Assembly: GCA_965116905.1 (NCBI GenBank)
Contig: OZ220732.1
Location: 544,001-608,000 of the forward strand
DNA: 64,000 nucleotides
Source: Longimicrobiales bacterium
Lineage (GTDB): Bacteria; Gemmatimonadota; Gemmatimonadetes; Longimicrobiales; Gaopeijiaceae
Direction: 5' to 3'
The translations under genes were made by a program, and so were the position numbers. Under the pieces are notes generated by a model, which searched no databases, was not told where the DNA came from, and saw only the letters and a list, made by a program, of their open reading frames with translations. Positions 40,977 through 55,188 of the stretch are shown in pieces (the first letter of the stretch is position 1; every line of letters starts with the position of its first letter).

Positions 40977-41453
40977 CTACCTCAGCGGAACCTCCAGGCC
41001 GATCCTAAGCACGCGGTGGCCGGACAGGATGACGCCTCCGGTGCAGCAGTTGCGGTCGGGCACGAGGCCATACACGAATGCCACCTCCGCGCCGACGGGA
41101 TAGTCGCGTCCCCGCACGCTCAGGCCGACCAACGCGCCAACGTCCGGATAGTCATTGTAGCTGAAGGCGGGGCCCGCCGTGAGAGTGATGTCACCGAGCC
41201 GGCGCTTATAGAGCACGGGTACTTCGATCGAATGCACCCGGTAGCTCCCGCTCCCCCTCTGGACATAGAGGGCGCCGAGGTGAAAGTGGTCGCGCACGTC
41301 GAATGACAAGCCGCCGTAGAAGCCTCTTATCGTGTCCTCCCACACGGGGTCGTGAAGGGACGCGAGGGCGAGGCCGAAATGAACCCTTCCACTCTGTGCG
41401 GCTGCCGGTACGGCTGCCAGGGCCATCATGAGAACCGCCAGTAGTGTGCGCAT
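40977..41453 (-). CDS. Small outer-membrane beta-barrel-like protein
   Basis: Signal peptide MRTLLAVLMMALAAVPAAAQ; alternating beta-strand pattern, 'IEVPVL', C-terminal LRIGLEVPL. Confidence 0.65.
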   Translation of the reverse strand: MRTLLAVLMMALAAVPAAAQSGRVHFGLALASLHDPVWEDTIRGFYGGLSFDVRDHFHLGALYVQRGSGSYRVHSIEVPVLYKRRLGDITLTAGPAFSYNDYPDVGALVGLSVRGRDYPVGAEVAFVYGLVPDRNCCTGGVILSGHRVLRIGLEVPLR

Positions 41454-41701
41454 TGTCACCCCACGTTCTGAATCCATGTCTTGCGGATGTCGTCTGCATT
41501 CCATCCCGACGGCCGTGTAGAACTCGGGTTCCGCGGCGCGTTCAGGCCGGGAAACCGGATTCGGTGGACCATGGTATCGACCCGGTTCTCCAGGCACCAT
41601 ACGAAGTCGGCGGTGTCGTTGCGCTTGCCGTCAGAGTTGCGGCACGTCTTGAACAATGGCAGCGGCCGGAACACGCGCGACCGATCGCGGGTAGTCTGGA
41701 C

Positions 41702-42928
41702 ATGGTGAGAATGCCCCGTGTCGCAACCGTCCTGTGCCTCCTGGCAATCCTCCCGGCGTGTGAAGACGCACCCGTCGGCAACGTCACGGGCGCCCCGATC
41801 GAGCTGGGCGAAACGGCCATTGAGATACTCGGGAGCTCCGACTCCCTGGTCGTTGCCCGGGACCTCGAGATTGCGGACGACGGATCCGTCTGGGTGCTGA
41901 ACTCGGCCGAGCCCCTTTTCGTGGGATTCGGACCGGATGGCGAGCCGCTTGGCTCTCATGGACAATCAGGCAGAGGACCCCGCGACTTCCCCATGCCCGC
42001 AGGATTCGTTGCGGGGGGATGGCGGGGGGACGTCTGGGCCCTCGACCTCGTGCGTCACGCGATGGTCCGGATCTCGCACCCAGACGCCGACTGGGAGGAG
42101 ATTTCGTTGCAGTCGGCTTCCCTCCTTCCCGGCACCGTGCGGGGCGGCAGGAGCATGCTGGGCGGCTCGGTGCGAACCGCGAGACTCGGCCGTGAGGTCA
42201 TCGTGCCCCGCACGAGCGCGACGCTGGAGGGCGGCGTCCTGAACTACCGGTTCGCGGTCATGCGGCCCGACTTCGTCGCCTTTGATCCGGAAACCCGCGA
42301 GAGCCGAAGCCTCGTGGCGCTCGCCGACGTGCTGGAGGACCCTTCGAGCACCTTCGATCCCATCGAGGGGGGGTTCGGTTTCCCGCTGTGGTATCGGCTG
42401 TGGGCTTCCTGTGGCGATAGCGTTGTGAGGGTTTACGATCGGGTGACGAATCAACTCCGTGGTTTCGACGGGTCGGGTGCCGAATTGCCACCTATCATCC
42501 TGCCGCCGGTGCCCTTCAACGAAGTCACGGCTCGGCAGTTCGCGGGAGCGGTCTTCGCGATCCGGCAAGCCGAGCTGACGGGAGACGTGTGGAGCCGGCT
42601 CAGCCCGGAGGACAGCGTCCGGGTGATGAACCAGATGGTCCGGTCGGTCAACGGAAGGCCGAGTGAGCTCGCCAGCTACCTGCCTCGCTACGTGGACTTC
42701 CGCTGCGGCGCGGACGGGACGATGTGGCTGAATCCGGTCGATCTGGATGCCGGGGGCCTCAAGGGGGCTACGACGTGGCTACGAATCGCGTCCGACGGGA
42801 ACATCCGCGAGGTGCGTCTGCCCGAGCGGTTCGATGCCTTCCGCTTCTCGGAATCGCGCGTCTGGGGCGTGTACAGGGACGAATTGGACGTGCCCTCGGT
42901 CGCGTCGATCCGGCTGCCCATCAACTGA
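41702..42928 (+). CDS. 6-bladed beta-propeller-like lipoprotein
   Basis: Lipobox ILPAC; GQSGRGPRDF; C-terminal VWGVYRDELDVP. Confidence 0.7.
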   Translation: MVRMPRVATVLCLLAILPACEDAPVGNVTGAPIELGETAIEILGSSDSLVVARDLEIADDGSVWVLNSAEPLFVGFGPDGEPLGSHGQSGRGPRDFPMPAGFVAGGWRGDVWALDLVRHAMVRISHPDADWEEISLQSASLLPGTVRGGRSMLGGSVRTARLGREVIVPRTSATLEGGVLNYRFAVMRPDFVAFDPETRESRSLVALADVLEDPSSTFDPIEGGFGFPLWYRLWASCGDSVVRVYDRVTNQLRGFDGSGAELPPIILPPVPFNEVTARQFAGAVFAIRQAELTGDVWSRLSPEDSVRVMNQMVRSVNGRPSELASYLPRYVDFRCGADGTMWLNPVDLDAGGLKGATTWLRIASDGNIREVRLPERFDAFRFSESRVWGVYRDELDVPSVASIRLPIN

Positions 42929-45900
42929 TCGTGCGACGCCAGTTCGTAATGATCTTCGGGGCATCCTCCAGGAGTTCATTGAGGTCTGCGATCACGCCGT
43001 TCACGATGCCGGACAGCTCCTGCGCCCGCTGAGCGGCCCCGGCCTCGATCTCCGTGAGCACCTCCATTTGCCCGACGGTCGGGCGCGCCTGCGGGCCCGA
43101 CACCGCGCGGGAGATGTTCCGAAGCTGCTCGATCAGACGCGGCCAGTCGCGGTAGCTCATCGAACCCGGCGGACGGCGAACCTCGCTGGACACGGCCGTT
43201 AACTGCCCCTGCGCGTCCCCTGCCACGGCCTTCACCTGCTCCTCGTTGGCCAGGTCCTTGCCTTCGATGGACTCGAGAAGCCCGTCGATCTGGCCATCCA
43301 GGTCGAGGATCGTGCCCATCATCTGGTTGAGCTGCGTCTCGAGGTCACGCGCACGCATGGCCGCGGCGAAGCGATCCGCGTACACGGCCTGCGACGCCGC
43401 CACGTTCGGATCGCCGCGGAGCTGAAAGTCCTTCGACAGCTCCCGGTCACCCAGATCGACCGTCGCCGTGTACGTGCCTGGCACGGCGGGCGGACCCGTA
43501 GAACCGAAGAAGAAGAAAAAGAACCCGCCGCCCGGTGGACCCTCTCCCGGGATCGGCTCCGCGCCGGTCCAGCGGAGGTCCCAGATCGCGCGGTTCACTC
43601 CCGGCTTGACGTCGCGGTGCTGGAATTCGCGCACGAGCACGCCGTCGCTGTCGGTGATGCGCACGTCGACGGAGTTGCCCGCGGCCTCGGCAGCATCCTC
43701 CGAGAGATGGAAGTGGATCCAGGCGCCGGGATCGGGGTTCTCGCCGGCGAAGCGGCTCTGGCCGAAGTTGCTGGTGCGGCCCCACATCTCCCACTCGGTC
43801 GCCATGCGGATGTCGAAGAGATGGGCGTCCTGGCCCATCGCCTCGGTCAGCTCGACCATGGGCTGGATGTCGTCCAGGATGAAGGCGCCGCGGCCGTGGG
43901 TTCCGATGACGAGGTCGTTGTACTGGCGCTGGATCTTCACCCCCCGAACCGACACGCGCGGAAGGTTGCCGCGGATGTCCACCCACGTGTCGCCACGGTC
44001 CCACGAGGCGAAGATGCCCCGCTCCATGCCGACGAACAGCAGGTTGGGGTTCGCGGGGTGCTGCCGGACGACCTTGACGTAGTCGTCCTGCGGGAGCCCG
44101 GCGGAGATGTCGCGCCACGACTGTCCGTAGTCGCGCGTCTCGTACAGGTGCGGGGTGAAGTCGTCGAGGCGGTGGTTGTCGACGGCCATGTACGCGGCCC
44201 CGGCATCCGTGGGCGACGCCTCGATGTTGCCGATCCAGGTCTCGGCCGGCAGGCCCGGCACGCGGTCGCGCACGTTCGTCCACGTCGCGCCGTCGTCGCG
44301 GGTGATCTGCACGTTGCCGTCGTCCGTGCCGACCCAGATCACGCCCGGCTCGAACTCGTCCTCCGCGATGGTGAGGATCGTGGTGTGGAACTCGGCCGCG
44401 GTGTTGTCCAGGTAGATCTCGCCGCCGGAGTCGAGCTGCTTCTCCGGGTCGTCCGTGGTGAGGTCGGGGCTGATCACGTCCCACGAGTGGCCGTAGTCGT
44501 TGCTGCGGAAGACCACGTTGCCGCCCCAGTACACGGTGCCCGGGTCGTGCGGCGAGATGACGATCGGCGCGTCCCAGTTGAAGCGGTACCGCGCCTGGAA
44601 CATGCCCTGCCCCTGTGAACCGATCATGAGCGGCCACGGCTCGATCGAGCGCATCTGCCCGGAGTTGATGTCCGTAATACGGAAGTAACCGCCCTGGGCG
44701 TTCGAGTAGATCAGGTTCGGCTGACCCGGTACGGGCACGGTGTAGAAGCCGTCGCCGCCGGACACCGTGTAGAAGTACCCGGGCAGAATGCCGCGGCGAT
44801 CGTTGAGCCGGCTCGGGCCGCACCAGTTGCCGTTGTCCTGCAGCCCGCCGCACACATAGTAGGGGTCGCGGTCGTCGACGAAGATGTGGTAGTACTGCGC
44901 GAGGCTGAAGTTGCGGAAGATGTGGAAGTTGGCGCCGCCGTCGTACGACACCTGCATGCCGCCGTCCGAGCCGGAGAGCACGCGCTCGCCGTCGGTCGGA
45001 TCGATCCAGTACGCCTGGTGGTCTCCGTGCACGTCGTTGGCGATGCGCTCGAAGGTGCGGCCCCCGTCGGTCGATTTTGCCAGCGCGCCCGAGAGCGTGT
45101 AGAGCGTCTCGTGGTCGGACGGGTCGATGTAGACGTCGGAGTAGTAGAAGGGTCGGAAGTTGATCAGATTCTTGTTGTCGTTGACCATCGTCCACGTCTC
45201 GCCGTAGTCGTCGGACATGAAGAGCGTGCCGGCGGTGGGATACTCGGTGATCAGGTAGACGATGTTGGGGCGCGACTGGGCCACGCTGACGCCGATGCGG
45301 GCCATGGGCTCATCCGGCGTGGTCGTGATCTTCTTCCAGGAGACGCCGCCGTCGCGCGAGACGTAGAGCGCCGTCTCCCTGCCCCCGTCGTCGAAGCGCC
45401 ACGGCTTGCGGCGGAAGGTCCACATGCCCGCGTAGACGTTCCGGGGGTTGGTCAGGTCGATGTCCATGTCCGAGCAGCCCGTGTCCTCGTCGATGAAGAG
45501 CACGTGGTCCCATGACTGCCCGCCGTCGGTGGTGCGGAAGACGCCACGCTCCCGGTTGGGGCCCCATTCGTGGCCCATGGCGCAGACCAGCGCGACGTCG
45601 GGGTCGCGCGGATCGACGACGATGCGCTTGATTCGCTCGCTGTCGTCGAGGCCGAGGTGGGTCCAGGTGGCACCGCCGTCGGTCGAACGGTACACCCCGT
45701 CGCCATACGAGACCGAGTTGCGCGGGTCCGCCTCTCCGGCACCGAGCCAGAGGACGTTGTGGTCCGAGGGGGCGAGCGTCAGGGCCCCGACCGAGTAGGT
45801 GTTCTCGTCGTCCCACTGGTGCTCGAAGGTCACGCCGCCGTTGGTGGTCTTCCAGACGCCCCCGTTGGCAGCCCCCACCCAGAAGGTCCGCGGATCGCCC

Positions 45901-46103
45901 GGCACTCCGATGATCGCGGATACGCGGCCGCCCATGTTCACCGGACCGATGTGCCGCCACTCGATGTCGCCGAGGGCGGCCGAGATGGTTTCGGCGTCCT
46001 GGGCGTGGGCCGGAGGGGCGGCGAGCGGGGCAAGGGTGAGCGGGGCGACGAGCGCGAGGGCGAGGGTGCGCGGGAACGCGCTGCGGGACGACTTCATCTT
46101 CAT
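42921..46103 (-). CDS. Secreted VPS10/BNR(Asp-box)-repeat glycosyl hydrolase-like protein
   Basis: WRHIGP..GGR, multiple S/T-x-D-G-G-x-T/S-W Asp boxes, GGLQDNG, GTHGRG; signal ending AHAQ. Confidence 0.88.
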   Translation of the reverse strand: MKMKSSRSAFPRTLALALVAPLTLAPLAAPPAHAQDAETISAALGDIEWRHIGPVNMGGRVSAIIGVPGDPRTFWVGAANGGVWKTTNGGVTFEHQWDDENTYSVGALTLAPSDHNVLWLGAGEADPRNSVSYGDGVYRSTDGGATWTHLGLDDSERIKRIVVDPRDPDVALVCAMGHEWGPNRERGVFRTTDGGQSWDHVLFIDEDTGCSDMDIDLTNPRNVYAGMWTFRRKPWRFDDGGRETALYVSRDGGVSWKKITTTPDEPMARIGVSVAQSRPNIVYLITEYPTAGTLFMSDDYGETWTMVNDNKNLINFRPFYYSDVYIDPSDHETLYTLSGALAKSTDGGRTFERIANDVHGDHQAYWIDPTDGERVLSGSDGGMQVSYDGGANFHIFRNFSLAQYYHIFVDDRDPYYVCGGLQDNGNWCGPSRLNDRRGILPGYFYTVSGGDGFYTVPVPGQPNLIYSNAQGGYFRITDINSGQMRSIEPWPLMIGSQGQGMFQARYRFNWDAPIVISPHDPGTVYWGGNVVFRSNDYGHSWDVISPDLTTDDPEKQLDSGGEIYLDNTAAEFHTTILTIAEDEFEPGVIWVGTDDGNVQITRDDGATWTNVRDRVPGLPAETWIGNIEASPTDAGAAYMAVDNHRLDDFTPHLYETRDYGQSWRDISAGLPQDDYVKVVRQHPANPNLLFVGMERGIFASWDRGDTWVDIRGNLPRVSVRGVKIQRQYNDLVIGTHGRGAFILDDIQPMVELTEAMGQDAHLFDIRMATEWEMWGRTSNFGQSRFAGENPDPGAWIHFHLSEDAAEAAGNSVDVRITDSDGVLVREFQHRDVKPGVNRAIWDLRWTGAEPIPGEGPPGGGFFFFFFGSTGPPAVPGTYTATVDLGDRELSKDFQLRGDPNVAASQAVYADRFAAAMRARDLETQLNQMMGTILDLDGQIDGLLESIEGKDLANEEQVKAVAGDAQGQLTAVSSEVRRPPGSMSYRDWPRLIEQLRNISRAVSGPQARPTVGQMEVLTEIEAGAAQRAQELSGIVNGVIADLNELLEDAPKIITNWRRTIS

Positions 46104-46236
46104 GTTTGGTTCTCCGGGGGTGGCTTCCAATGCCTGTCGATAAGCAGTGAGTGGCCCACCACTAATACAAGGGACCTCGTCGCGGCAAAAGCTCGGCTCG
46201 CCAAGCCACGGGGTCAGCTTGGCAGGCCACGCTCGA

Positions 46237-46253
46237 TGTGTAATCTTTACACA
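46237..46253. promoter_or_regulatory. Operator palindrome upstream of TA pair
   Basis: TGTGTAA-TCT-TTACACA perfect inverted repeat 28 bp before the antitoxin ATG. Confidence 0.65.
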
Positions 46254-46281
46254 CTTGCCGAGACACCTGGAGGTGAACGAC

Positions 46282-46512
46282 ATGGCTCGACGGGTCAACA
46301 TCATGATGGACGATGACTCCTGGCGCATTATCGGGAGGCTGCCGCGCGGTACTCGCAGCCGGGCCGTCAACGCCGCCATCCGGGAGTGGGCGGGTGTCTC
46401 CATGAGGCGGGAAGCCTCTGCCCGGATGGACGCATTGCGCGCGCGCTTGCCGGCGGTTGACACGTGCCAGATCGTCCAATGGATTCGGGAGGAGCGGGAA
46501 CGGCGGCCGTGA
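46282..46512 (+). CDS. Antitoxin (RHH-like)
   Basis: MARRVNIMMDD...RSRAVNAAIREW; GGAGG SD; GTGA overlap with PIN toxin. Confidence 0.8.
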   Translation: MARRVNIMMDDDSWRIIGRLPRGTRSRAVNAAIREWAGVSMRREASARMDALRARLPAVDTCQIVQWIREERERRP

Positions 46513-46937
46513 TCGTAACGCCCGACGCATCGGTTCTTCTCAAGTGGGTTCTGCCGGGCGACGACGAGCAGGACACGGACGCGGCGCTCGCCCTGCGTGA
46601 CGAAGCGGTGAGCGGGAAGCTTGAGCTGGTCGTTCCCCAGCTCTGGATCTACGAGGTGGGAAACACGCTGGCGAGACGGTTCCCCGATGACGCCGACGAA
46701 CTTCTCGCATCGCTGGTCGACTTCGGCCTGACCGAGGCCCGACTGGACGCCGACTGGAGAACGCGGGCGGTGTCCTTGTCCGTGAGGTACGGCGTCGCGT
46801 TCTACGACGCGGGGTACCATGCCGTGGCGCTCGAGCTGGATGGTGTGTTCGTCACCGCCGACGAACGATACGTGCGCCGCGCGGCGGGCGCCGGCAGCAT
46901 CTCAACGTTGCGGGCCTGGCGAACGGATTCCTCCTAG
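46509..46937 (+). CDS. vapC: VapC/PIN-domain toxin
   Basis: DASVLLKW, YEVGNTL, FYDAGYHAVA and FVTAD motifs. Confidence 0.92.
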   Translation: MIVTPDASVLLKWVLPGDDEQDTDAALALRDEAVSGKLELVVPQLWIYEVGNTLARRFPDDADELLASLVDFGLTEARLDADWRTRAVSLSVRYGVAFYDAGYHAVALELDGVFVTADERYVRRAAGAGSISTLRAWRTDSS

Positions 46938-46941
46938 CGCA

Positions 46942-46982
46942 CACCCCCGGGCTCGTCCTCCACGAACCCCCGGTATCCCAGC
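46942..46982. repeat. Left copy of 41-bp direct repeat (displaced 3' end of amidohydrolase gene)
   Basis: 40/41 identical to 48551-48591; minus strand reads LGYRGFVEDEPG and continues GVR-TAG to 46934. Confidence 0.95.
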
Positions 46983-47087
46983 CACAGGCCATAGACCCTC
47001 TGACCTCGCCGAAGGTTCAGAACCGGACACACTATGTGCTAGAAAACCGGACAGATAAAGTGCTCTCAACAAACCGCCGTAACGTGG

Positions 47088-47116
47088 TTGACTAAGGTCC
47101 CTGGTCCTCCTAGGGT
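47088..47116 (+). promoter_or_regulatory. Candidate sigma70 promoter for peptide-propeller operon
   Basis: TTGACT-N17-TAGGGT; preceded by 20-bp imperfect direct repeats at 47021-47040 and 47045-47064. Confidence 0.55.
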
Positions 47117-47182
47117 TCAGCCCGCTGGTCGGAGGACCCCCCTCTCGCCACGATTACTCGACTCCCACAGTGAGGAGAATCA

Positions 47183-47380
47183 ATGTCGCGCTTCAACCGT
47201 GTTGCCCTGACCCGCTCCCTCGTAATAGCGATAGCCGTAGTCTTCGCTCCCCTCCTCGCGGCCCAGACCACAACGCCGTGTTTCGACGAGTGCCATGCAG
47301 CCGCAATGGACCGTTACAACGAAGGCATGCCGCTCTTCATGAACGACGCGATTTTCAAGCTGTGCCTCGACCTTTGCTAA
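47183..47380 (+). CDS. Small secreted Cys-motif peptide (CX3C-X23-CX3C), 65 aa
   Basis: GAGGAG SD before ATG47183; Sec-type signal ending LLAA|Q; four Cys in mature part. Confidence 0.75.
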   Translation: MSRFNRVALTRSLVIAIAVVFAPLLAAQTTTPCFDECHAAAMDRYNEGMPLFMNDAIFKLCLDLC

Positions 47381-47415
47381 CACTGCACCCTGGCGGCAAG
47401 CATCCACTTTCAACT

Positions 47416-48438
47416 GTGGCGGCCGTCTCCGTGGCGGTCGCTGCAGTTGCGTGTGACTCCGGGACGGTCACCACTCCAGCCGTCCCCCTCGCTTCTATCG
47501 CCTCCGTGTCCGCACCGTTTAGCGTTGACACGCGCATCGTGCTAGTGGATGAAGACCTCGTATGCGTGAACAACTCCTTCGAGATGCGAGTCCGGTGTGT
47601 TGACCAGCGCGGCGACCTGGTCGGTGTATTCGGTCGCAGGGGAGAGGGCCCAGGGGAGTTCGAACTGCCACCGAGTCTTGTGCGCGGACCCGACGGCACG
47701 GTTGGCGCCATCTCCATCAACCGGCTTGCCATCTTCACCCCCGGTGGGGATCTGGTTGATGAGATAACCTTACCCGTAGGCTTTCCCCTTCCGGCCGCAA
47801 AGTCGTTTGATACGACTCTTCTGGCCAACTACTACCTGGGCGGGGCCAATATGACCTTGGTAGAGATCGACCTCTCATCCGCCACCGTGCTGTGGGAACG
47901 CCAGGACATCGCCCACATCGCCGCGACCGAGTGCGGCAGCGTTGCACTGGGAGTCGCTTCTCCCTCCGGAGGCTGGACGTTCCCCGCGTGTCAGCGTGAA
48001 CTCGCATTCCTCGACGATCGTGACGCATCCACCGCTACCGCCATCCTGTCTCCAACCTATGCCGAAGAGTTTCCCAACGAACGCGATATCGCGGAGATGC
48101 AAGCCCAGACCCAGCCCTTTGCCTTTCGAGCGGATTTGGACGTGTACAGGGAGACCCCGAAGCGCAATCACCTCAGGGTCGGGTCCCTTGCGTACGACGA
48201 TGAAGGCCGTCTTTGGGTAGCCACGGAACGAGACCGTTCCCGGTTCTCCTATTTCGACCTCTATGTCGGCACCGAGCACGTCGGCTCGGTGCGGATCAAG
48301 GATCGCCTTCTGGGCTACGACCTCTATGGTTCCACCCTGGCTGCCCTGGTCGAGCGCGACCCCGACACCGACGGAATAGGACGCCGTGCCGTGGACTGGT
48401 ACGATATTGGGCCTCTGGATTTCGGTGTGGGACAATAG
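47416..48438 (+). CDS. 6-bladed beta-propeller-like lipoprotein
   Basis: AAVAC lipobox-like; FGRRGEGPGEF; DDEGRLWV; start uncertain (frame open from 47170). Confidence 0.7.
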   Translation: MAAVSVAVAAVACDSGTVTTPAVPLASIASVSAPFSVDTRIVLVDEDLVCVNNSFEMRVRCVDQRGDLVGVFGRRGEGPGEFELPPSLVRGPDGTVGAISINRLAIFTPGGDLVDEITLPVGFPLPAAKSFDTTLLANYYLGGANMTLVEIDLSSATVLWERQDIAHIAATECGSVALGVASPSGGWTFPACQRELAFLDDRDASTATAILSPTYAEEFPNERDIAEMQAQTQPFAFRADLDVYRETPKRNHLRVGSLAYDDEGRLWVATERDRSRFSYFDLYVGTEHVGSVRIKDRLLGYDLYGSTLAALVERDPDTDGIGRRAVDWYDIGPLDFGVGQ

Positions 48439-48536
48439 CTCGAGCACGAACATTTTTTCGCTCAAATAGCTTCCCTCGAAGTCGCCCGCTGCTTCCCAAG
48501 GTCTAGAGCCTGACCCGGCAGACGGCCTCGGTCAGC

Positions 48537-51500
48537 CTACCGATTCTCGCCACCCCCGGGCTCGTCCTCCACGAACCCGCGGTATCCCAGCGCCCGCTGC
48601 CGCGGCCAGACCTCGTCGAGGGTCTCCGCGTCGAACAGCCTCCCGTTGATCATCACCTGCTCGACCAATTCGGTATTCCGGAGATCGTCGAGGGGGTTGC
48701 GCGACAGGATGGCCAGGTCGGCCAGCTTGCCGGGCTCGATCGAGCCGAGTTCGGTCTCGAGGCCGATGCCGTTGGCGCCGAAGATCGTGGCGGACTTGAG
48801 CGCGTCGTGGTTCGACATGCCGCCCGAGGCGACCATCCACAGCTCCCAGTGGAACCCGAGGCCCTGGAGCTGGCCGTGGCTGCCGACCCCAGCGAAGCCG
48901 CCGTCAGCGACCACATCGGCCAGGAAGCGGGCGTGGTCTTCGAAGACGTACTCCTCGTCGATCGCCCACGCGACCGAACCCGCCGCGCCGGCGCGCCGCC
49001 GGGTGCGGGAGTCGAGGGTCTCGCGGGGTGTGAATCGCACCAGGCGCTCGTTGCCGAGCACGTCCTCGGTCGTGAACCAGTAGATCTCGCCCATGGGGCC
49101 GCCGAAGGAGACGATCAGCGTCGGCGTGTTCAGGACCTTTGTCGCCGAAAAGAGGCGGACGACATCGTGATAGAGGGGGTAGATGGGGACGTTGTGTTCG
49201 ATCCCGGGATAGCCGTCCATTGCGTGCGTCAGGTCGGCCTGATAGTCGAGTCCGGCCTCGGTCGTCGGCATGAGCTCGAGTTCGCGCGCCGCCATGACGA
49301 GCCACTGTCGCTGCTGGCGGTTCCCCGAGAGGTACATCTTGAACGTCTTGGTGTCGTAGTAGTCCGAGTAGCGCCTGAGGACATTGCGCGCGTGGTCGAG
49401 GTCGCGGATGCCCTCCAGCGCCTGGTAGTTGCCGAAGACCCCCGGGCCGGTGGAGAAGATGCGCGGTCCCAGGATGTCGCCTGACCGCACCCGGTCGGCG
49501 TAGGTGAGGACGTCCGAGACGCCGGTCTGGGGGTCGCGTGTGGTCGTGACGCCGAACGCCAGGTTGGCGAGGTAGCCCCACGGCTGCGTGGTGTGGACGC
49601 CGGCCGGCGGACGCAGGTGGGCGTGCGTGTCGACGAAGCCGGGCGTGATGGTCATGCCGGAGACGTCGCGGACCTCGGCGCCGTCGGGGACGGAGAGCGT
49701 GCCGGATGGGCCCACCGCGGCGATGCGGTGGCCGTCGATGAGGATGTCTCCCCGTTCGATGACGTCGTCCCCGCGCATCGTGATGACGCGTGCGCCGGAG
49801 AGCAGGAGCGTCCCGGTGGGCAGGTCGCGGGGGACGTCGAGGGCGACGCGGACTTCGGTGGGCTGGTAGCGGGGGTTGGAGGAGGAGGACGCGGCTGGAT
49901 CGTCGGTCGCCGCAGGGTCGGCGGCGTCCGCAGGGTCGGCCTCGTCGGACTCCGCAGCCTCCGCAGCCTCGACGCTGTCCGCGAATGCCTCCGCGTCGGC
50001 CAGGTTGTAGCGGAAGTACGCGTTCCCGAGTGCCCAAACCGCCTCGGTGCCGTCGCTGCTCCAAGACTGGAACTCGCCGCCGGACTCGGTGATGCGGGTG
50101 ACCGGGACCGCTGCGCCGGAGGGACTCCGGACCGAGACTGTCGGGGCCTCGGCGCCCACCTGTGGGACGGTCACGAGGTAGAGGTCGTTGCCCACCTTGG
50201 CCAGCGCCCGCCCCCCGGCGGGTGACACCCGAATCGAGGAGGCGTTGGCCGGGGGACCGCTACGGTTGGCCGAGAAGCCGGTGACCTTGAGGTGTTCCTT
50301 CTCGTCGGTGCCGTCCCAGCGGATCGAGACCAGGCCGCGCGTGCCCGCGTGCAGGTAGATGCGGTCGGGTTGGTCGGTGCGGAAGTGCGGCTGGGAGCGT
50401 CCCAGCGCCTCCGCCACGATTGTCGCCGCGGCGGGGGCGCCGCTGCCCGCCCCGTACCAGACGATGTCGGCCTGGCCACCGCCGCCGGCACCTTGCAGAC
50501 GTGCGCGCACCGGTCGCTGCAGCGCCACGATGCGGTCGCCGTCTGGAGACCAGGCGGGGGATTGCAGATAGCGGGCCGCGTCCGACACGCGCCGGGCGCC
50601 GTCGCCATTCGCAGGGATCTCCCAGAGATGGCCACCGTCCGGCTCACGCCAGCTCACCGCCGCCAATGTCTCGCCGTCGGGCGACCACGCGGGATGGAAC
50701 ACGGCACCGTCGACCTCCGCGCCGATCCGGCGCGGGACACCTCCACCTGCTTCCATCACATACAGCTGGCCAAGCGCGGTGAAGGCGACCGTGCCGCCGT
50801 CCGGCGACAGGGCGACCTCGCGGATCTGGCGCGCGCGGAAGGTGGGCGTGTCCTCGACCGGGTAGTCGAAGTCGAGGCGGGGGCCCGCGTGGATGACCAC
50901 GTCGGCCGTGAAGGGGATCTCGGTGGGCTCGTTCGCGTCCGTCTCGCCGGCGTTTGTCTCACCGGCATCCAGCGGCACGCGCCACAGGCGGCCGCCGTAC
51001 GAGGCGATCAGCGCGGTGCCATCGGGCGTGAAGGCGTAGCCGGGGAGGAGGTCGAGGGTCGCGCGGCTCTCCATGTCGTCGCGCTGCACGGGGTAGACGA
51101 GCCAGCGTTCGTTGCCGGTGGCGAGGTCGCGGGCGCGGAGACCCGTGGCATCCTCGTGGCGGGAACCGTAGACCAGCGTGGCGCCGTCGGGGGATACGGC
51201 CGGGCGGAACCCGGAACCGTAGCGGCCGGTGACCGTAGGGCTGCGGCCTGTCTCGCGGTCATAGCGGACGAGCTGGTACTTCGGGAAGGCCGCGTCGTAG
51301 GTCCAGTCGCGCGTCCCCTGCGCGAGGTAGATGTAGCGGCCTGTGGGATCGAAGGCGGCCCCGATGGCCTTGAGCTGTTCGGGCTCGTCGATCAGGGCGA
51401 TCCCGCTGCCCCCGTCGCGGTGGAAGAGCCACGGCTTCGCGGCGCCGCCGAGCGGGCTGAAGGTGCGGGACGCGACGAGGTACTGCCCGTCCGGGGACCA

Positions 51501-51944
51501 CTCGGGCGAAGTGTAGAGGTTGTCGTTGCCGCGGGTAATCTGGGTCGTGTCGGAGCCGTCGGTGCTCAGGACCCAGAGGTTCTGGCCGCCGCTCCTGTCC
51601 GAGACGAAGACGATTTCGCTTCCGTCGGGGCTGAAGCGCGGCTGGCTCTCGAAGGCGGGGCCGGTGAGGAGCGGGGTGGCGGCGCCGCCGTCGACGGGGA
51701 GCGTGTAGAGGTCGCCGAGCAAGTCGAAGACGAGGGTGGCGCCGTCCGGGCTGATGTCGACGGAGATCCAGGAGCCCTCGCTGGTGGTGAACCGGATCTC
51801 GCGGGTGGGCTCGAGGGGGAGGGAGGCGGTGGCGAGGGAGTCGGCCTGCGCCGCGGTGCCGGCGGACTCCTGGGCGTGGGCGGGCGCCGCCGGGAGGGAC
51901 GCGATAAATGCGATGGCGACGAAGGTGAGGACGAGGCTCTTCAT
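48537..51944 (-). CDS. Secreted amidohydrolase with N-terminal PD40/TolB-like propellers
   Basis: Repeated P-x-F/W-S-P-D-G; PGFVDTHAH, GSHGQLQG and GSIEPGKLADL motifs; signal ending AHAQ. Confidence 0.9.
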   Translation of the reverse strand: MKSLVLTFVAIAFIASLPAAPAHAQESAGTAAQADSLATASLPLEPTREIRFTTSEGSWISVDISPDGATLVFDLLGDLYTLPVDGGAATPLLTGPAFESQPRFSPDGSEIVFVSDRSGGQNLWVLSTDGSDTTQITRGNDNLYTSPEWSPDGQYLVASRTFSPLGGAAKPWLFHRDGGSGIALIDEPEQLKAIGAAFDPTGRYIYLAQGTRDWTYDAAFPKYQLVRYDRETGRSPTVTGRYGSGFRPAVSPDGATLVYGSRHEDATGLRARDLATGNERWLVYPVQRDDMESRATLDLLPGYAFTPDGTALIASYGGRLWRVPLDAGETNAGETDANEPTEIPFTADVVIHAGPRLDFDYPVEDTPTFRARQIREVALSPDGGTVAFTALGQLYVMEAGGGVPRRIGAEVDGAVFHPAWSPDGETLAAVSWREPDGGHLWEIPANGDGARRVSDAARYLQSPAWSPDGDRIVALQRPVRARLQGAGGGGQADIVWYGAGSGAPAAATIVAEALGRSQPHFRTDQPDRIYLHAGTRGLVSIRWDGTDEKEHLKVTGFSANRSGPPANASSIRVSPAGGRALAKVGNDLYLVTVPQVGAEAPTVSVRSPSGAAVPVTRITESGGEFQSWSSDGTEAVWALGNAYFRYNLADAEAFADSVEAAEAAESDEADPADAADPAATDDPAASSSSNPRYQPTEVRVALDVPRDLPTGTLLLSGARVITMRGDDVIERGDILIDGHRIAAVGPSGTLSVPDGAEVRDVSGMTITPGFVDTHAHLRPPAGVHTTQPWGYLANLAFGVTTTRDPQTGVSDVLTYADRVRSGDILGPRIFSTGPGVFGNYQALEGIRDLDHARNVLRRYSDYYDTKTFKMYLSGNRQQRQWLVMAARELELMPTTEAGLDYQADLTHAMDGYPGIEHNVPIYPLYHDVVRLFSATKVLNTPTLIVSFGGPMGEIYWFTTEDVLGNERLVRFTPRETLDSRTRRRAGAAGSVAWAIDEEYVFEDHARFLADVVADGGFAGVGSHGQLQGLGFHWELWMVASGGMSNHDALKSATIFGANGIGLETELGSIEPGKLADLAILSRNPLDDLRNTELVEQVMINGRLFDAETLDEVWPRQRALGYRGFVEDEPGGGENR
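48551..48591. repeat. Right copy of 41-bp direct repeat (current 3' end of amidohydrolase gene)
   Basis: CACCCCCGGGCTCGTCCTCCACGAACCCGCGGTATCCCAGC. Confidence 0.95.
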
Positions 51945-51949
51945 TTCGG

Positions 51950-52414
51950 TTACTCCCCGAGGCTGTGGCGCCGACGCCGTTCCGGCACGCGAGGCACCGT
52001 CTCGAACCCGGCCTGAGAGAAATGGCGATCGGTCGTCAGGGCCCTGGCCAGACCCAGTTCCTGCATCACGACGAAGCTTGTGCAATCGGTAAACGAGAAG
52101 TCCCTGTCGGTCCACTCGAAGAAGCGCGTCCGGGCTTTCTCGGCCCGCGAGGCATCGATGCGTTCCCAGCGGATCCGGGAACTGGCGTCGATCTGGGCCC
52201 ACCACTCCTCGGCCGCACGCAGCCCCAGCCGAACCCGAATGAGCGTCAGCGTCTCGTCGATCACATAGTCGGTCGAGACCAGGATCCCCCCGCTCTCCAG
52301 GCACACGTCGCGTTCCCGACGGCTGGCTTGATGCGCCGGGTCAGCGGCGTCGGCCATGGCCATCCAGCCGGCCGTGTCGACGAAGAGCGCCCGGCCGCTC
52401 GGTGGGCTACTCAC
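51950..52414 (-). CDS. vapC: VapC/PIN-domain toxin
   Basis: LFVDTAGW, VIDETLTL, FSFTDCTSFVVM and TTDRHF motifs. Confidence 0.92.
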   Translation of the reverse strand: MSSPPSGRALFVDTAGWMAMADAADPAHQASRRERDVCLESGGILVSTDYVIDETLTLIRVRLGLRAAEEWWAQIDASSRIRWERIDASRAEKARTRFFEWTDRDFSFTDCTSFVVMQELGLARALTTDRHFSQAGFETVPRVPERRRRHSLGE

Positions 52415-52661
52415 CACCCCGACCATACAGAATCCGGTCGTGATCCGCAGAGATCAGCCCGTCGGTCGACTGGCCCACCGCTTCCGCCCCGTAGAGCGAA
52501 TCGTCCTCCAGGGGGCCGAGAGCGACTCCGCCATGCAGCGGCACGATCCGAAAGGCCGGGCGGCTCCGGTAGAGCACGGTGAAGTGCTCTCCGCGTTTCA
52601 CCCGCTCGATGACACGCCTCATTTCGTGCCGCAGCGTCTTGACGTTGATGGTGTTGGACAT
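52407..52661 (-). CDS. Phd/YefM family antitoxin
   Basis: INVKTLR...VIERVKRGEHFTVLYRSRP; C-terminal DHDRILYG; overlaps vapC start. Confidence 0.85.
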   Translation of the reverse strand: MSNTINVKTLRHEMRRVIERVKRGEHFTVLYRSRPAFRIVPLHGGVALGPLEDDSLYGAEAVGQSTDGLISADHDRILYGRGGE

Positions 52662-52803
52662 CGGCGAACCCCCGGACGCTGCCTGGTGAGCGACTAAAGA
52701 TAAACTTAAGATAACCTTTGGTGATTGGTTGCGCGCCAAGCTACCTCGATTCTAGCGTACTCCCCGAGAGCTTTCGATCCTGTCGCGCCGCAAAGGAGAT
52801 CCC

Positions 52804-52902
52804 ATGTCTACGTTCGTGCTGGTTCGTCGTGTCCAGGCATCGGACACCGAGGCGTGCGGATCTCGCACAGCACTTCCTGCGGAGCAGGGCGCTTGCCGCT
52901 AG
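52804..52902 (+). CDS. 32-aa upstream ORF (candidate erm leader peptide or frameshifted erm N-terminus)
   Basis: AAGGAG SD then ATG52804: MSTFVLVRRVQASDTEACGSRTALPAEQGACR*; out of frame with erm. Confidence 0.45.
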   Translation: MSTFVLVRRVQASDTEACGSRTALPAEQGACR

Positions 52903-53626
52903 CCTGATCGCTCAGGCCCCCGTCGAACGAAGCGACCTGGTCGTCGAGATCGGGCCGGGCCGCGGCATTCTCACTCGAGAACTGGCACGCCGCTGTCGCA
53001 AGGTCGTCGCGGTGGAGTTCGACGGAGTGCTGGCGGACGCGCTTCGCACACGCTTCCTGAGTGACAACCGCGTCACGATCGTCACGGCCGACATCCTGCG
53101 TTTTGGGCTGCCCGATGTCCCCTACAAGGTTCTGGGGAACATTCCGTTCAATCGGACCGCCGCGATCGTGCGGCGGCTCGCCCAGGCCGATGCTCCGCCA
53201 CAGGACGCCTATCTCGTGGTCCAGCGTGAAGCGGCGGAACGATTCGCCGGAGGTCCCTTTTCCCGGGAGACCCGGTCCTCGCTGTTGCTCAAGCCGTGGT
53301 GGCAAATCGAAATCGCGCGGCGCCTTCGCCGTACCGACTTCGATCCCCCTCCCTCCGTCGACGCCGTCGCCCTATGGCTTGCCCGTCGAACGAGGCCACT
53401 CGTGGACCGATCCCGGGCCGCGGACTACCGTCGCTTCATCCGGACTTGCTTCGGTCGCGATGGTCAGTCGATCAGACGATGTCTGCGACCCGAGTTCACG
53501 CGAACGCAGATCCACCGATTGAGTCGGGATCTGAGGTTCGATCCGTCGGGGCCACCTTCAAACCTCATCTTCGACCAATGGCTCGGGCTGTTCAGATTCC
53601 GCGGGCTCAGGCCGGACTCAGGATGA
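52829..53626 (+). CDS. erm: Erm-family 23S rRNA adenine-N6 methyltransferase
   Basis: AQHFL, EIGPGRGILT, GNIPFNRT, PWW, F-x-PPPSVD and DQWLGLF motifs (more Erm-like than KsgA-like); start uncertain. Confidence 0.75.
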   Translation: MSRHRTPRRADLAQHFLRSRALAASLIAQAPVERSDLVVEIGPGRGILTRELARRCRKVVAVEFDGVLADALRTRFLSDNRVTIVTADILRFGLPDVPYKVLGNIPFNRTAAIVRRLAQADAPPQDAYLVVQREAAERFAGGPFSRETRSSLLLKPWWQIEIARRLRRTDFDPPPSVDAVALWLARRTRPLVDRSRAADYRRFIRTCFGRDGQSIRRCLRPEFTRTQIHRLSRDLRFDPSGPPSNLIFDQWLGLFRFRGLRPDSG

Positions 53627-54778
53627 CCCAGGCCCGAATATCATCTTCACGATCTCGGGAACACCCAGTTCGTCCGTCGCCGCCCCCAACGCCACATCGC
53701 CGCGAATCGCGCCGTAGTCCAGAGCTACTTCCCGCGGCCAAGCCGCATTGAACAGCAGCTCGCCTCCGGCAGAGTAGACATGCGCTGTCGCGAGCGAGTC
53801 TCCGTCCTCGCCCCAGAGTTGAACCCAGAGCCGGTTGTCCTGATCGAACCACAGATCTTCTATTGGCGGCTTTCGCTCGGGGACTTCGAACGGTGCCCAC
53901 TCGACCGGTGTTGGCTGTTGCCGATAGGCGGCGGCGACGCTGTCCATCCGGGATTCCTCGCGTCGACGTTCCGCGGTCGACACGAGCGGCCCCGCACGGT
54001 CCCTGCGGATGGTGCCTGTCTGGACGCCCGCAGCGGTGAACAGGTCGACCTCATATAGCCAGGTGACGACCCTCGCGTATTCGCCGGCTGCCGAGGTGGC
54101 CAGCAGGTCGAACGGCGCGAACGGACCTGGGAGGGCTGGGTACATTACCTCGACTCGGCCGTCGCTGAAGGTCGCCGTCATCCAGTGGTGCCCCAGTTCC
54201 TCCGCATCCAGCGCCGCAGGCAGCGTGTCTTCACGCAGAACGGTCCCCGCCACGTCCAGCCAGACCCGAACACCGTGCAACCCCGTCTCGTACGAGCGCA
54301 GACCGACTTCACCATTCGGCGCGAACACCGGGGTGCTCCCCACTTCGTCGAACGACATCGACCTGACGTACGGCGCTCCGGCTACGGCGGGCGAAAAGAC
54401 CTCGTAGTCCCGGTACGTATTCACCCAGAGCTCACCACTCGGGGCGATGGCGACGCCCGAGACCTGCGAAAACTCCCCCGGACCTTCGCCGGTTCCGCCA
54501 ATCGTCCCGACAAACTGTCCATTCCCCGCATACAACGTGATCCGCGGGCCAATCCCGTCCGCAACCACAAATCGGGAATCGGGGAGTAGAGCCAGGTCTC
54601 TCACGTCGGCGAACAGGTAGTCCGGATCGTCCGTGTTCTTTCCCAAACGGAACTCGACGGACGCCACCCTTCGGTTCCCACGGATCGAGTCTTCGGATTC
54701 CCCCGCGCCGGTCGATTCCAACTCCGAATCGCAGGCCGCCGCAGCAACCATGATCAGGGCGCACCGGGCACACTGCAT
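53618..54778 (-). CDS. 6-bladed beta-propeller-like lipoprotein
   Basis: AAAAC lipobox-like; IGGTGEGPGEF; DQDNRLWV; C-terminal DELGVP. Confidence 0.75.
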   Translation of the reverse strand: MQCARCALIMVAAAACDSELESTGAGESEDSIRGNRRVASVEFRLGKNTDDPDYLFADVRDLALLPDSRFVVADGIGPRITLYAGNGQFVGTIGGTGEGPGEFSQVSGVAIAPSGELWVNTYRDYEVFSPAVAGAPYVRSMSFDEVGSTPVFAPNGEVGLRSYETGLHGVRVWLDVAGTVLREDTLPAALDAEELGHHWMTATFSDGRVEVMYPALPGPFAPFDLLATSAAGEYARVVTWLYEVDLFTAAGVQTGTIRRDRAGPLVSTAERRREESRMDSVAAAYRQQPTPVEWAPFEVPERKPPIEDLWFDQDNRLWVQLWGEDGDSLATAHVYSAGGELLFNAAWPREVALDYGAIRGDVALGAATDELGVPEIVKMIFGPGSS

Positions 54779-55188
54779 CAAAACAGCTCCTCCCCCGGCA
54801 GCCCCGACGCCTGTTCCAGCCAGCTGACCAGCAACTCCTCGTCGGGCTCGTCCCCCTCGTGGATGTGGAAGTACCGCACGTGCTCGTACTTGGAGGTCAC
54901 CGGAGGCACGGGCCGCAGCGAGCCGCCGTTGAGGAAGGTCACCTTGATGTACTTCGTGAAGCAGTGGAAGGAGAGGAACCAGCCCCGGTCCTCGATCCCG
55001 TAGAACGGCGAGTTCCACCGGACCGCCTTGCGGACCTCGGGCACGCTGCGCTCAACAAGCGCGTCGAGCTGGCGGCCGACCTCGCGCTTCCAGCCCGGCA
55101 TCGCCGCGATGTAGGCCTGCACGGGCCCGTCCCCGTCACCTTTCGGGATCTGCGGATTCCCGCCCGAGAGGAGTTTCGGCTTCCCCAC
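54778..55188 (-). CDS. DUF1801 (YdhG-like) protein
   Basis: VQAYIAAMPGWK, KAVRWNSPFYG and HCFTKYIKVTF motifs. Confidence 0.85.
   Translation of the reverse strand: MGKPKLLSGGNPQIPKGDGDGPVQAYIAAMPGWKREVGRQLDALVERSVPEVRKAVRWNSPFYGIEDRGWFLSFHCFTKYIKVTFLNGGSLRPVPPVTSKYEHVRYFHIHEGDEPDEELLVSWLEQASGLPGEELF

Follow-up and report, generated by a model that had tools for sequence, protein, structure and literature searches.

A travelling two-gene cassette of a probably secreted four-cysteine peptide and a beta-propeller lipoprotein in Longimicrobiales

Two genes between direct repeats

In the 64,000-nt stretch of Longimicrobiales DNA that we analysed (the window), a unit of two genes lies between two 41-bp direct repeats whose sequence duplicates the end (3′) of an amidohydrolase gene. 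The first gene (47183–47380, plus strand) codes for 65 amino acids, comprising a predicted 27-aa Sec signal peptide (47183–47263) and a predicted mature part, an acidic hairpin of 38 aa (47264–47377); a Shine–Dalgarno sequence, GAGGAG (47172–47177), stands 5 nt upstream of its ATG. The second (47374–48438, plus strand) codes for a six-bladed NHL/DUF5128-like beta-propeller lipoprotein, as judged by model, profile and homologue starts. The left repeat copy (46942–46982) forms the left border of the insert and is identical at 40 of 41 positions to the end of the host amidohydrolase gene (48537–52304, minus strand), within which the right copy lies (48551–48591). Part of the non-coding right end of the insert (48439–48550) is common to two relatives that carry other cargo here (L145/L202 and L146/L203). 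A contig from a DNA run covers 46940–48647 with 0 differences.

The peptide ORF has the features described when the locus was first read from its sequence, namely a Shine–Dalgarno sequence, 65 codons, a 38-aa mature part ending in Cys and the spacing CX3C-X23-CX3C. Ten stop-terminated segments in the six frames of the whole 4.2-Mb genome end in a CX3C...CX3-4C motif, and only the one at 47183–47380 has a Shine–Dalgarno sequence and a hydrophobic N-terminus; because, in addition, homologues keep the signal peptide and the cysteines, the ORF is not a chance occurrence. The longer ORF that overlaps it (47170, in the propeller frame) is open over 422 aa. In four groups of relatives the peptide frame has pN/pS values of 0.27, 0.50, 0.65 and 0.38, and the frame of the long ORF values of 1.2–2.0; GC3 was 0.75 versus 0.44, and in several peptide-bearing relatives the propeller frame is closed 13–16 codons upstream. 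By these comparisons, the peptide ORF is a genuine gene whose reading frame is kept by purifying selection, the 47170 frame is not one, and the long frame is very unlikely to be the true N-terminus, the outcome that the sequence-only reading had named as fatal to its claim. It is likewise hardly credible that peptide and propeller are physically unconnected, the former being a passenger or leader: the long open frame and the many propellers without a peptide would fit this, yet the selection, GC3 and frame-closure data, together with a linkage to the propeller gene in 42 of 43 cases (see below), speak against it. The expectation that gene callers would overlook the peptide was wrong, as the exact 65-aa protein is already in the public record; in that record the propeller is called short, at 310 aa.

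Upstream of the peptide gene, a repeat search found two copies of ACCGGACA-N6-GTGCT, 24 bp apart (47021–47064, plus strand), which may represent a regulator site or a promoter element. In this genome the motif occurs only here, and it is also found upstream of two 42%-identical propellers (L016/L018). Scans for sigma-70 promoters, terminators and Rfam families gave no signal above chance. An RNA run labelled sponge metagenome held nothing matching the peptide and one 214-nt contig on the propeller (47508–47721, 8 differences, depth 4), a match that supports no conclusion, since contigs assembled from an RNA library do not prove transcription.

Three start codons can be considered for the propeller gene: TTG at 47374, in frame and overlapping the peptide stop; CTG at 47383, aligned with the ATG of a relative; and GTG at 47416. 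A start about 35 bp behind the peptide (the GTG) had been proposed; a 97%-identical homologue called at 354 aa fits the TTG, and the start is probably TTG 47374 or CTG 47383. The lipobox Cys (codon 47452–47454) is retained in at least 90% of 150 aligned rows; it was called, like the signal peptide, by inspection by eye plus conservation among homologues. The AF2 model of the propeller is a six-bladed NHL-type fold (pLDDT 91.6) whose closest solved fold is the Brat NHL domain (1q7f; Z 21.6, rmsd 3.1, 254 residues aligned), and NHL domains also ranked top in Foldseek and VIA searches. A propeller profile matched the NHL domains of Thin and TRIM71 among solved structures (E 2e-27 to 4e-25) and, more distantly, Bacteroides fragilis BF0058 (PDB 4raa; E 0.00095), while the top neighbours in the ESM Atlas were DUF5128 clusters (0.95). 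The subfamily thus resembles DUF5128 (PF17170)/NHL lipoproteins such as BF0058 in its six-bladed fold and N-terminal GxGPGEF motif; it differs in having two conserved Cys pairs and a helical insert and in lying below the Pfam cut-off, as neither this propeller (P0002) nor seven relatives reached the curated PF17170 threshold and the locus is not among the 48 matches in the genome. From the portion of the BAM preprint consulted, the six-bladed BamH is a different, two-domain protein.

The genome contains 111 propeller-type genes, only three of which are immediately preceded by a clear secreted Cys-rich ORF; three close paralogues of the propeller in this genome have no upstream peptide. Two further propeller-type lipoprotein genes of the wider clan flank the region (41444–42928 and 53618–55018), neither with a Cys peptide upstream. 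Elsewhere in the genome, unrelated secreted seven-Cys ORFs of 80 and 148 aa stand directly upstream of other propeller genes (L288:1771-2013 + 2031-2696 and the L287:1677-2402 region, all on the minus strand), the former preceded by a CxxC thioredoxin-like ORF to give a three-gene set. Other secreted Cys-rich proteins, of related families, were seen at L197 and L198, the one at L197 upstream of a distant propeller-like lipoprotein. The propeller has close homologues in Gemmatimonadetes or Longimicrobiales MAGs, some of them named Candidatus Palauibacter, names of a type that we take to be sponge-derived; a sponge habitat is likely, judging from these names and one weak RNA-run label. A Rhodothermales bacterium chromosome (L219) carries a 39%-identical member of the propeller subfamily with no peptide detected upstream, possibly as a result of cross-phylum transfer.

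A family of acidic, four-cysteine peptides

A 15-row profile of the peptide gave 23 matches in 13 of the 53 genomes of the genus and found 28 proteins in a 90% protein library; in a separate homologue search, the 6 weak ones among 24 matches were dropped as unrelated after a check. With a 74-row profile, matches were found in 33 of 301 genomes of the order (the weakest 7 of 47 were dropped as unrelated, 6 after a check and 1 not fetched) and in 20 of 401 genomes of the phylum. The latter include 13 of 69 in its own family and, from another order, 6 of the 30 genomes of one family; the 166 and 94 genomes of two large families of the phylum had none. The range beyond the GTDB Gemmatimonadota rests on protein matches that come without genome context. 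At 50% identity the family forms 65 clusters, 21 of them at E <= 1e-10 and 3 of them fusions or unrelated long proteins. Pfam and NCBIfam offered no credible family (74 members scanned with Pfam), no solved structure was related by sequence, fold searches with the peptide model, signal helix included, gave nothing over background (best Foldseek E 4.1, best Z 5.0), and the top ESM Atlas match (0.86) is unnamed and serves as a lead only. By these sequence searches the family has no match to any curated family and is unnamed.

The alignments contain no conserved stretch of 7–10 residues. What the 74 rows share is a pattern of signal peptide, A-Q, CFxxCHxxAM, variable loop, FxxC and a final Cys, with His38 conserved in 71, Met42 in 68 and Gln after the signal-peptide Ala in 62; the mature part is net negative in all 74, with a median charge of −8. 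C33 and C65 are lost together, with C37 and C61 retained, in two rows (P0043 and P0079) and in three copies in genome G079. This joint loss points to nested disulfides rather than heme attachment, and the pairs C33–C65 and C37–C61 are likely. AF2 places helices at 32–46 and 51–63 (pLDDT 94–98), so that the mature peptide is predicted to be a disulfide-stapled helical hairpin; the hairpin suggested by the sequence-only reading is thus borne out by a model rather than by a solved structure. More divergent forms of the hairpin, with six Cys and a C-terminal extension, occur upstream of the same propeller subfamily (L094/L223, L233, L237 and L129).

The same joint loss bears on the suggestion that CFDECH could be an atypical CX3CH heme site, which is unlikely given that the first and last Cys disappear together in two cluster representatives. 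Membership of the c-type cytochromes was rejected: the first Cys goes with the fourth in P0043, P0079 and the G079 copies, and none of the 74 members matches a cytochrome Pfam family. A wider version, in which the small peptide carries a metal or heme through His38 and Met42 and the propeller collects it, could draw on the conservation of these residues one helical turn apart and on the many acidic residues, but the cysteine pattern does not suit CX3CH attachment and no metal-related genes recur nearby. Moreover, a His and a Met on one helix face cannot serve as both axial ligands of a heme. We regard this carrier role as very improbable.

The plant alpha-hairpinins, which have antimicrobial or inhibitor activity and to which the peptide had been likened, share four Cys, a predicted helix–loop–helix, inferred nested disulfides and small secreted size. 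The likeness in fold stands, as a prediction, but family membership does not. The alpha-hairpinin motif is given as C1X3C2X4-20C3X3C4 in the part of the source consulted (PMC11591084), whereas the C2–C3 spacer is 23 here, at least 22 in 69 of 70 rows and at most 20 in the remaining one, and the final motif is CX4C in 53 of 70 rows. The present peptides are also bacterial, all acidic, encoded one per gene with a dedicated partner gene, and marked by conserved F/H/M residues. No sequence link to alpha-hairpinins emerged from the Pfam scan of the 74 members or the search of solved-structure sequences.

NVEALA peptides of Bacteroidales are paired with DUF5128/NHL-type propellers. Membership of that family (PF14055) was tried and rejected, with 0 of 74 members matching; in the genome as a whole PF14055 had no match, a result to be read with the fact that the controls gave none either. 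Our literature search, which covered openly accessible papers, found no description of the peptide–propeller pair and no work on DUF5128 or NVEALA, and the words propeller, NHL and peptide do not occur in the main text of PMC10469786. Within these searches the peptide family and its cassette are real and undescribed.

The earlier suggestion that the N-terminal Gln can cyclise to pyroglutamate is plausible, as the genome contains a glutaminyl cyclase gene (L320:1486-2493, minus strand; PF05096, 297 bits). The host also encodes VKOR; given these two enzymes, oxidation of the peptide and pyroglutamate formation are plausible, albeit generic. A-Q after the signal peptide is frequent among secreted proteins of this genome, and AHAQ occurs in the window proteins at 42921–46820 and 48537–52304; the excerpt of PMC5837995 consulted describes the pattern as Bacteroidetes-specific.

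Mobility and one-sided pairing

The insert has a GC content of 0.57–0.62, against 0.70 for the amidohydrolase gene, and contains no recombinase. The amidohydrolase 3′ end (46942–48591 in the window) is a hot spot for insertions: among the 30 orthologous gene ends compared (L135–L164), 4 have the cassette, 6 are joined directly to a PIN toxin–antitoxin pair, 6 to a VPS10-type gene and 14 to other cargo, so that the cassette is missing from this site in 26 genomes, 12 of which show a clean empty site. A second PIN/Phd toxin–antitoxin pair in the window (51950–52739) lies beside an rRNA adenine dimethylase gene (PF00398, Erm/KsgA-like; 52718–53626). Elsewhere the pair has a different context in nearly every genome, and 8 of 22 loci have mobile-element genes no more than about 4 kb away. 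Tandem copies were seen as a double in genome G021 and as a triple in G079 (L194), where the peptides retain the inner Cys pair only. One stretch of 6,235 bp, including integrase and MobC genes, is 99.9% identical between genomes of two genera, and two separate cassette loci show this degree of identity across two genera (L293/L302 and L295/L193), one of them within the integrase and MobC element. These loci reflect recent transfer or, if the samples were shared, an assembly artefact. The empty sites, tandem copies and near-identical loci in two genera uphold the proposal that peptide and propeller travel as a cassette.

A gene of the propeller subfamily lies directly downstream of 42 of 43 distinct peptides in all fetched loci, the 43rd standing at a contig end; 38 of these propellers are full length. 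In the second order, the propeller follows the peptide in 6 of 6 loci. From the side of the propeller the picture is different: an upstream peptide match was found for 24 of 118 distinct copies, 5 of which had been reached via the peptide in the first place. The pairing is one-sided, with about five-sixths of propellers lacking a peptide. The idea that propeller homologues are preceded by such peptides is correct when viewed from the peptide and incorrect for most homologues, even those 57–71% identical. Among 92 propellers without an intact peptide there are 7 clear remnants and 4 divergent candidates, and a further remnant was seen at L045, with the reservation that several of the broken peptides may be sequencing indels.

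In a 126-row FastTree phylogeny of the propellers, peptide-bearing rows are dispersed throughout, down to the deepest branches; there are 22 state changes, and one clade of 38 rows has no peptide at all. The dispersal fits an old pairing with repeated loss, on a tree that is unrooted and has long branches. Orphan propellers, which often stand in tandem, have a pN/pS of 0.31 (18 pairs) versus 0.28 for peptide-bearing ones (7 pairs), and are, on this sequence measure, under purifying selection. Distances between peptides correlate with those between propellers (r 0.57; 32/34 pairs). The correlation that the proposed co-evolution test would look for is present, but linkage explains it: joint inheritance alone would give such a correlation, and we discounted the mirror-tree result as a sign of co-evolution.

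No third gene recurs near the pair in 22 loci, a result based on Pfam scans of 58 of their 112 non-propeller ORFs and on a comparison of all 112 among themselves. A DsbA-like gene is present in 2 of the 22 flanks, thioredoxin/DsbA genes not being recurrent. With only two genes between the repeats and no recurring third gene in the 22 loci, there is no RiPP-type modifying enzyme, peptidase or exporter.

Predicted complex and possible function

Complex prediction of the sort proposed in the sequence-only reading (AlphaFold-multimer on peptide plus propeller) predicted binding, with an ipSAE of 0.88 (runs 0.88, 0.81 and 0.89) against 0.01, 0.02 and 0.35 for the controls. Of 157 solved complexes, 116 attain the score mark used, as do 2 of 215 mismatched pairs, a calibration that applies roughly to the alignments that we built ourselves; close cousins also pass the mark. 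The control at 0.35 paired the peptide with an unrelated protein, so that in the model the peptide behaves as somewhat sticky. The runs had at least 78% of their contacts in common, with a partner pLDDT of at least 83. No similar solved complex was found by sequence. In the model, the loop of the hairpin enters one face of the propeller; the nearest contacts are made by residues 44–57, and H38, M42 and F58 are also in contact, F34 and M62 not. Taking the prediction and its controls together, we consider it likely that peptide and propeller bind physically.

The predicted top-face positions of the propeller are variable and the peptide has no conserved Trp, features noted in a comparison with propeller enzymes (lactonase, PAL and amine dehydrogenase with its small subunit), whose hallmarks are invariant metal ligands at the centre or Trp/Cys cofactor residues conserved in the small subunit. 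Over the 26 predicted contact positions the frequency of the top residue is 0.31, versus 0.54 at 142 other non-strand positions, the positions not being independent of each other. Greater variability at contacts is as expected for a specificity surface, and the conserved residues of the propeller are found away from the predicted contacts. There was no sign of positive selection at contact positions (pN/pS 0.43–0.51), nor was relaxed selection seen there in orphans. An apparent charge complementarity (propeller face +0.68 with the peptide versus −0.62 without) was rejected: it does not hold once the tree is taken into account (median p 0.375), and a shift is also seen in the remainder of the protein.

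Secreted effectors with a cognate binder offer the closest genetic parallel. Like Tse1/Tsi1-type pairs, the cassette has a small gene followed by a coupled binder gene, is mobile, and has binders that are periplasm-directed, built of propeller-type sheets, more numerous than the effectors and able to outlast their loss. The parts consulted of the respective sources describe Tse1/Tsi1 as a bicistronic pair whose immunity protein, a partial propeller, is a precedent (PMC3391265), and document orphan immunity genes (PMC10539506 and PMC12247911). Effector–immunity genes are marked by adjacency and coupling, by the absence of effectors without immunity and by orphan immunity genes; here, 42 of 43 peptides are followed by the propeller, and orphan propellers and peptide remnants occur. 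The possible exception is L311, where an intact peptide stands upstream of a frameshifted propeller, for which an indel error or a neighbouring propeller could account. The cassette differs in that its peptide has a signal peptide of its own and no enzyme domain and that no secretion-system genes recur nearby.

Since the cassette matches the genetics of effector–immunity systems in its gene order and coupling, its one-sided dependence, its mobility and its variable interface, we tentatively favour, by analogy, a secreted effector with its cognate binder and orphan binders, resembling toxin and immunity. The peptide and propeller genes would be translationally coupled; the peptide would be exported via Sec, cut by signal peptidase I, oxidised by the host DsbA/VKOR route and given an N-terminal pyroglutamate, while the propeller would be processed by signal peptidase II and lipid-anchored. 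The peptide loop would dock, as in the predicted complex, into the top face of the propeller, so that an outward-acting peptide effector would be held in check by its own binder. The weakest steps are that the peptide may act on neighbouring cells and that peptide-less propellers may be kept since they capture the peptides of other strains. Counting against a toxin are the acidity of the peptides, which is unlike most membrane-active antimicrobial peptides; the intact peptide with a frameshifted propeller at L311, which argues against a strict need for immunity; and the lack of positive selection at the contacts.

The predicted complex would fit equally well if the propeller, at the surface or in the periplasm, bound ligands from a host or the environment and the peptide were an optional cap or small subunit, plugging or tuning the ligand face. 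In its favour, the nearest solved folds are ligand-binding NHL domains (the Brat domain and the best profile match above), orphan and paired propellers are under equal selection, most of the 111 propeller-type genes have no peptide, and NHL repeats are enriched in sponge symbionts according to the portion of PMC5524777 consulted. Nevertheless, most copies should not be able to do without a cap if it were needed, yet the peptide is under purifying selection where present, and no host ligand is known; we judge this explanation rather unlikely. Less probable still is that the peptide serves as a signal or recognition tag specific to the strain, with the propeller as the receptor for it and orphans listening to neighbours. 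The variable loop facing a variable propeller face, the conserved residues off the contact set, at which a transducer could dock, and the repeated upstream motif, suggestive of regulation, would agree with signalling, but the propeller has no signalling domain and the 22 neighbourhoods contain no recurring sensor, regulator or transporter gene, just as no secretion-system or metal-related gene recurs in them.

DUF5128/NHL-like lipoproteins are hugely expanded in these bacteria and their ligand is not known. The cassette provides a candidate ligand of 38 residues that can be synthesised, together with a predicted interface and, in nature, dozens of pairs both cognate and non-cognate, which makes the ligand specificity and function of the propeller directly testable. 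If antagonistic, the peptide would be an unfamiliar kind of secreted effector, anionic and without an enzyme domain; antagonistic or not, it is a natural mini-binder scaffold. Effector and binder could, in a broader and more doubtful extension, belong to a class of interbacterial conflict or kin recognition in marine, probably sponge-dwelling Gemmatimonadota, in which polymorphic anionic hairpins would act as keys to about a hundred propeller locks per genome, most of them orphans capturing the peptides of neighbours. If true, this would give a function to the large unexplained expansions of DUF5128/NHL propellers.
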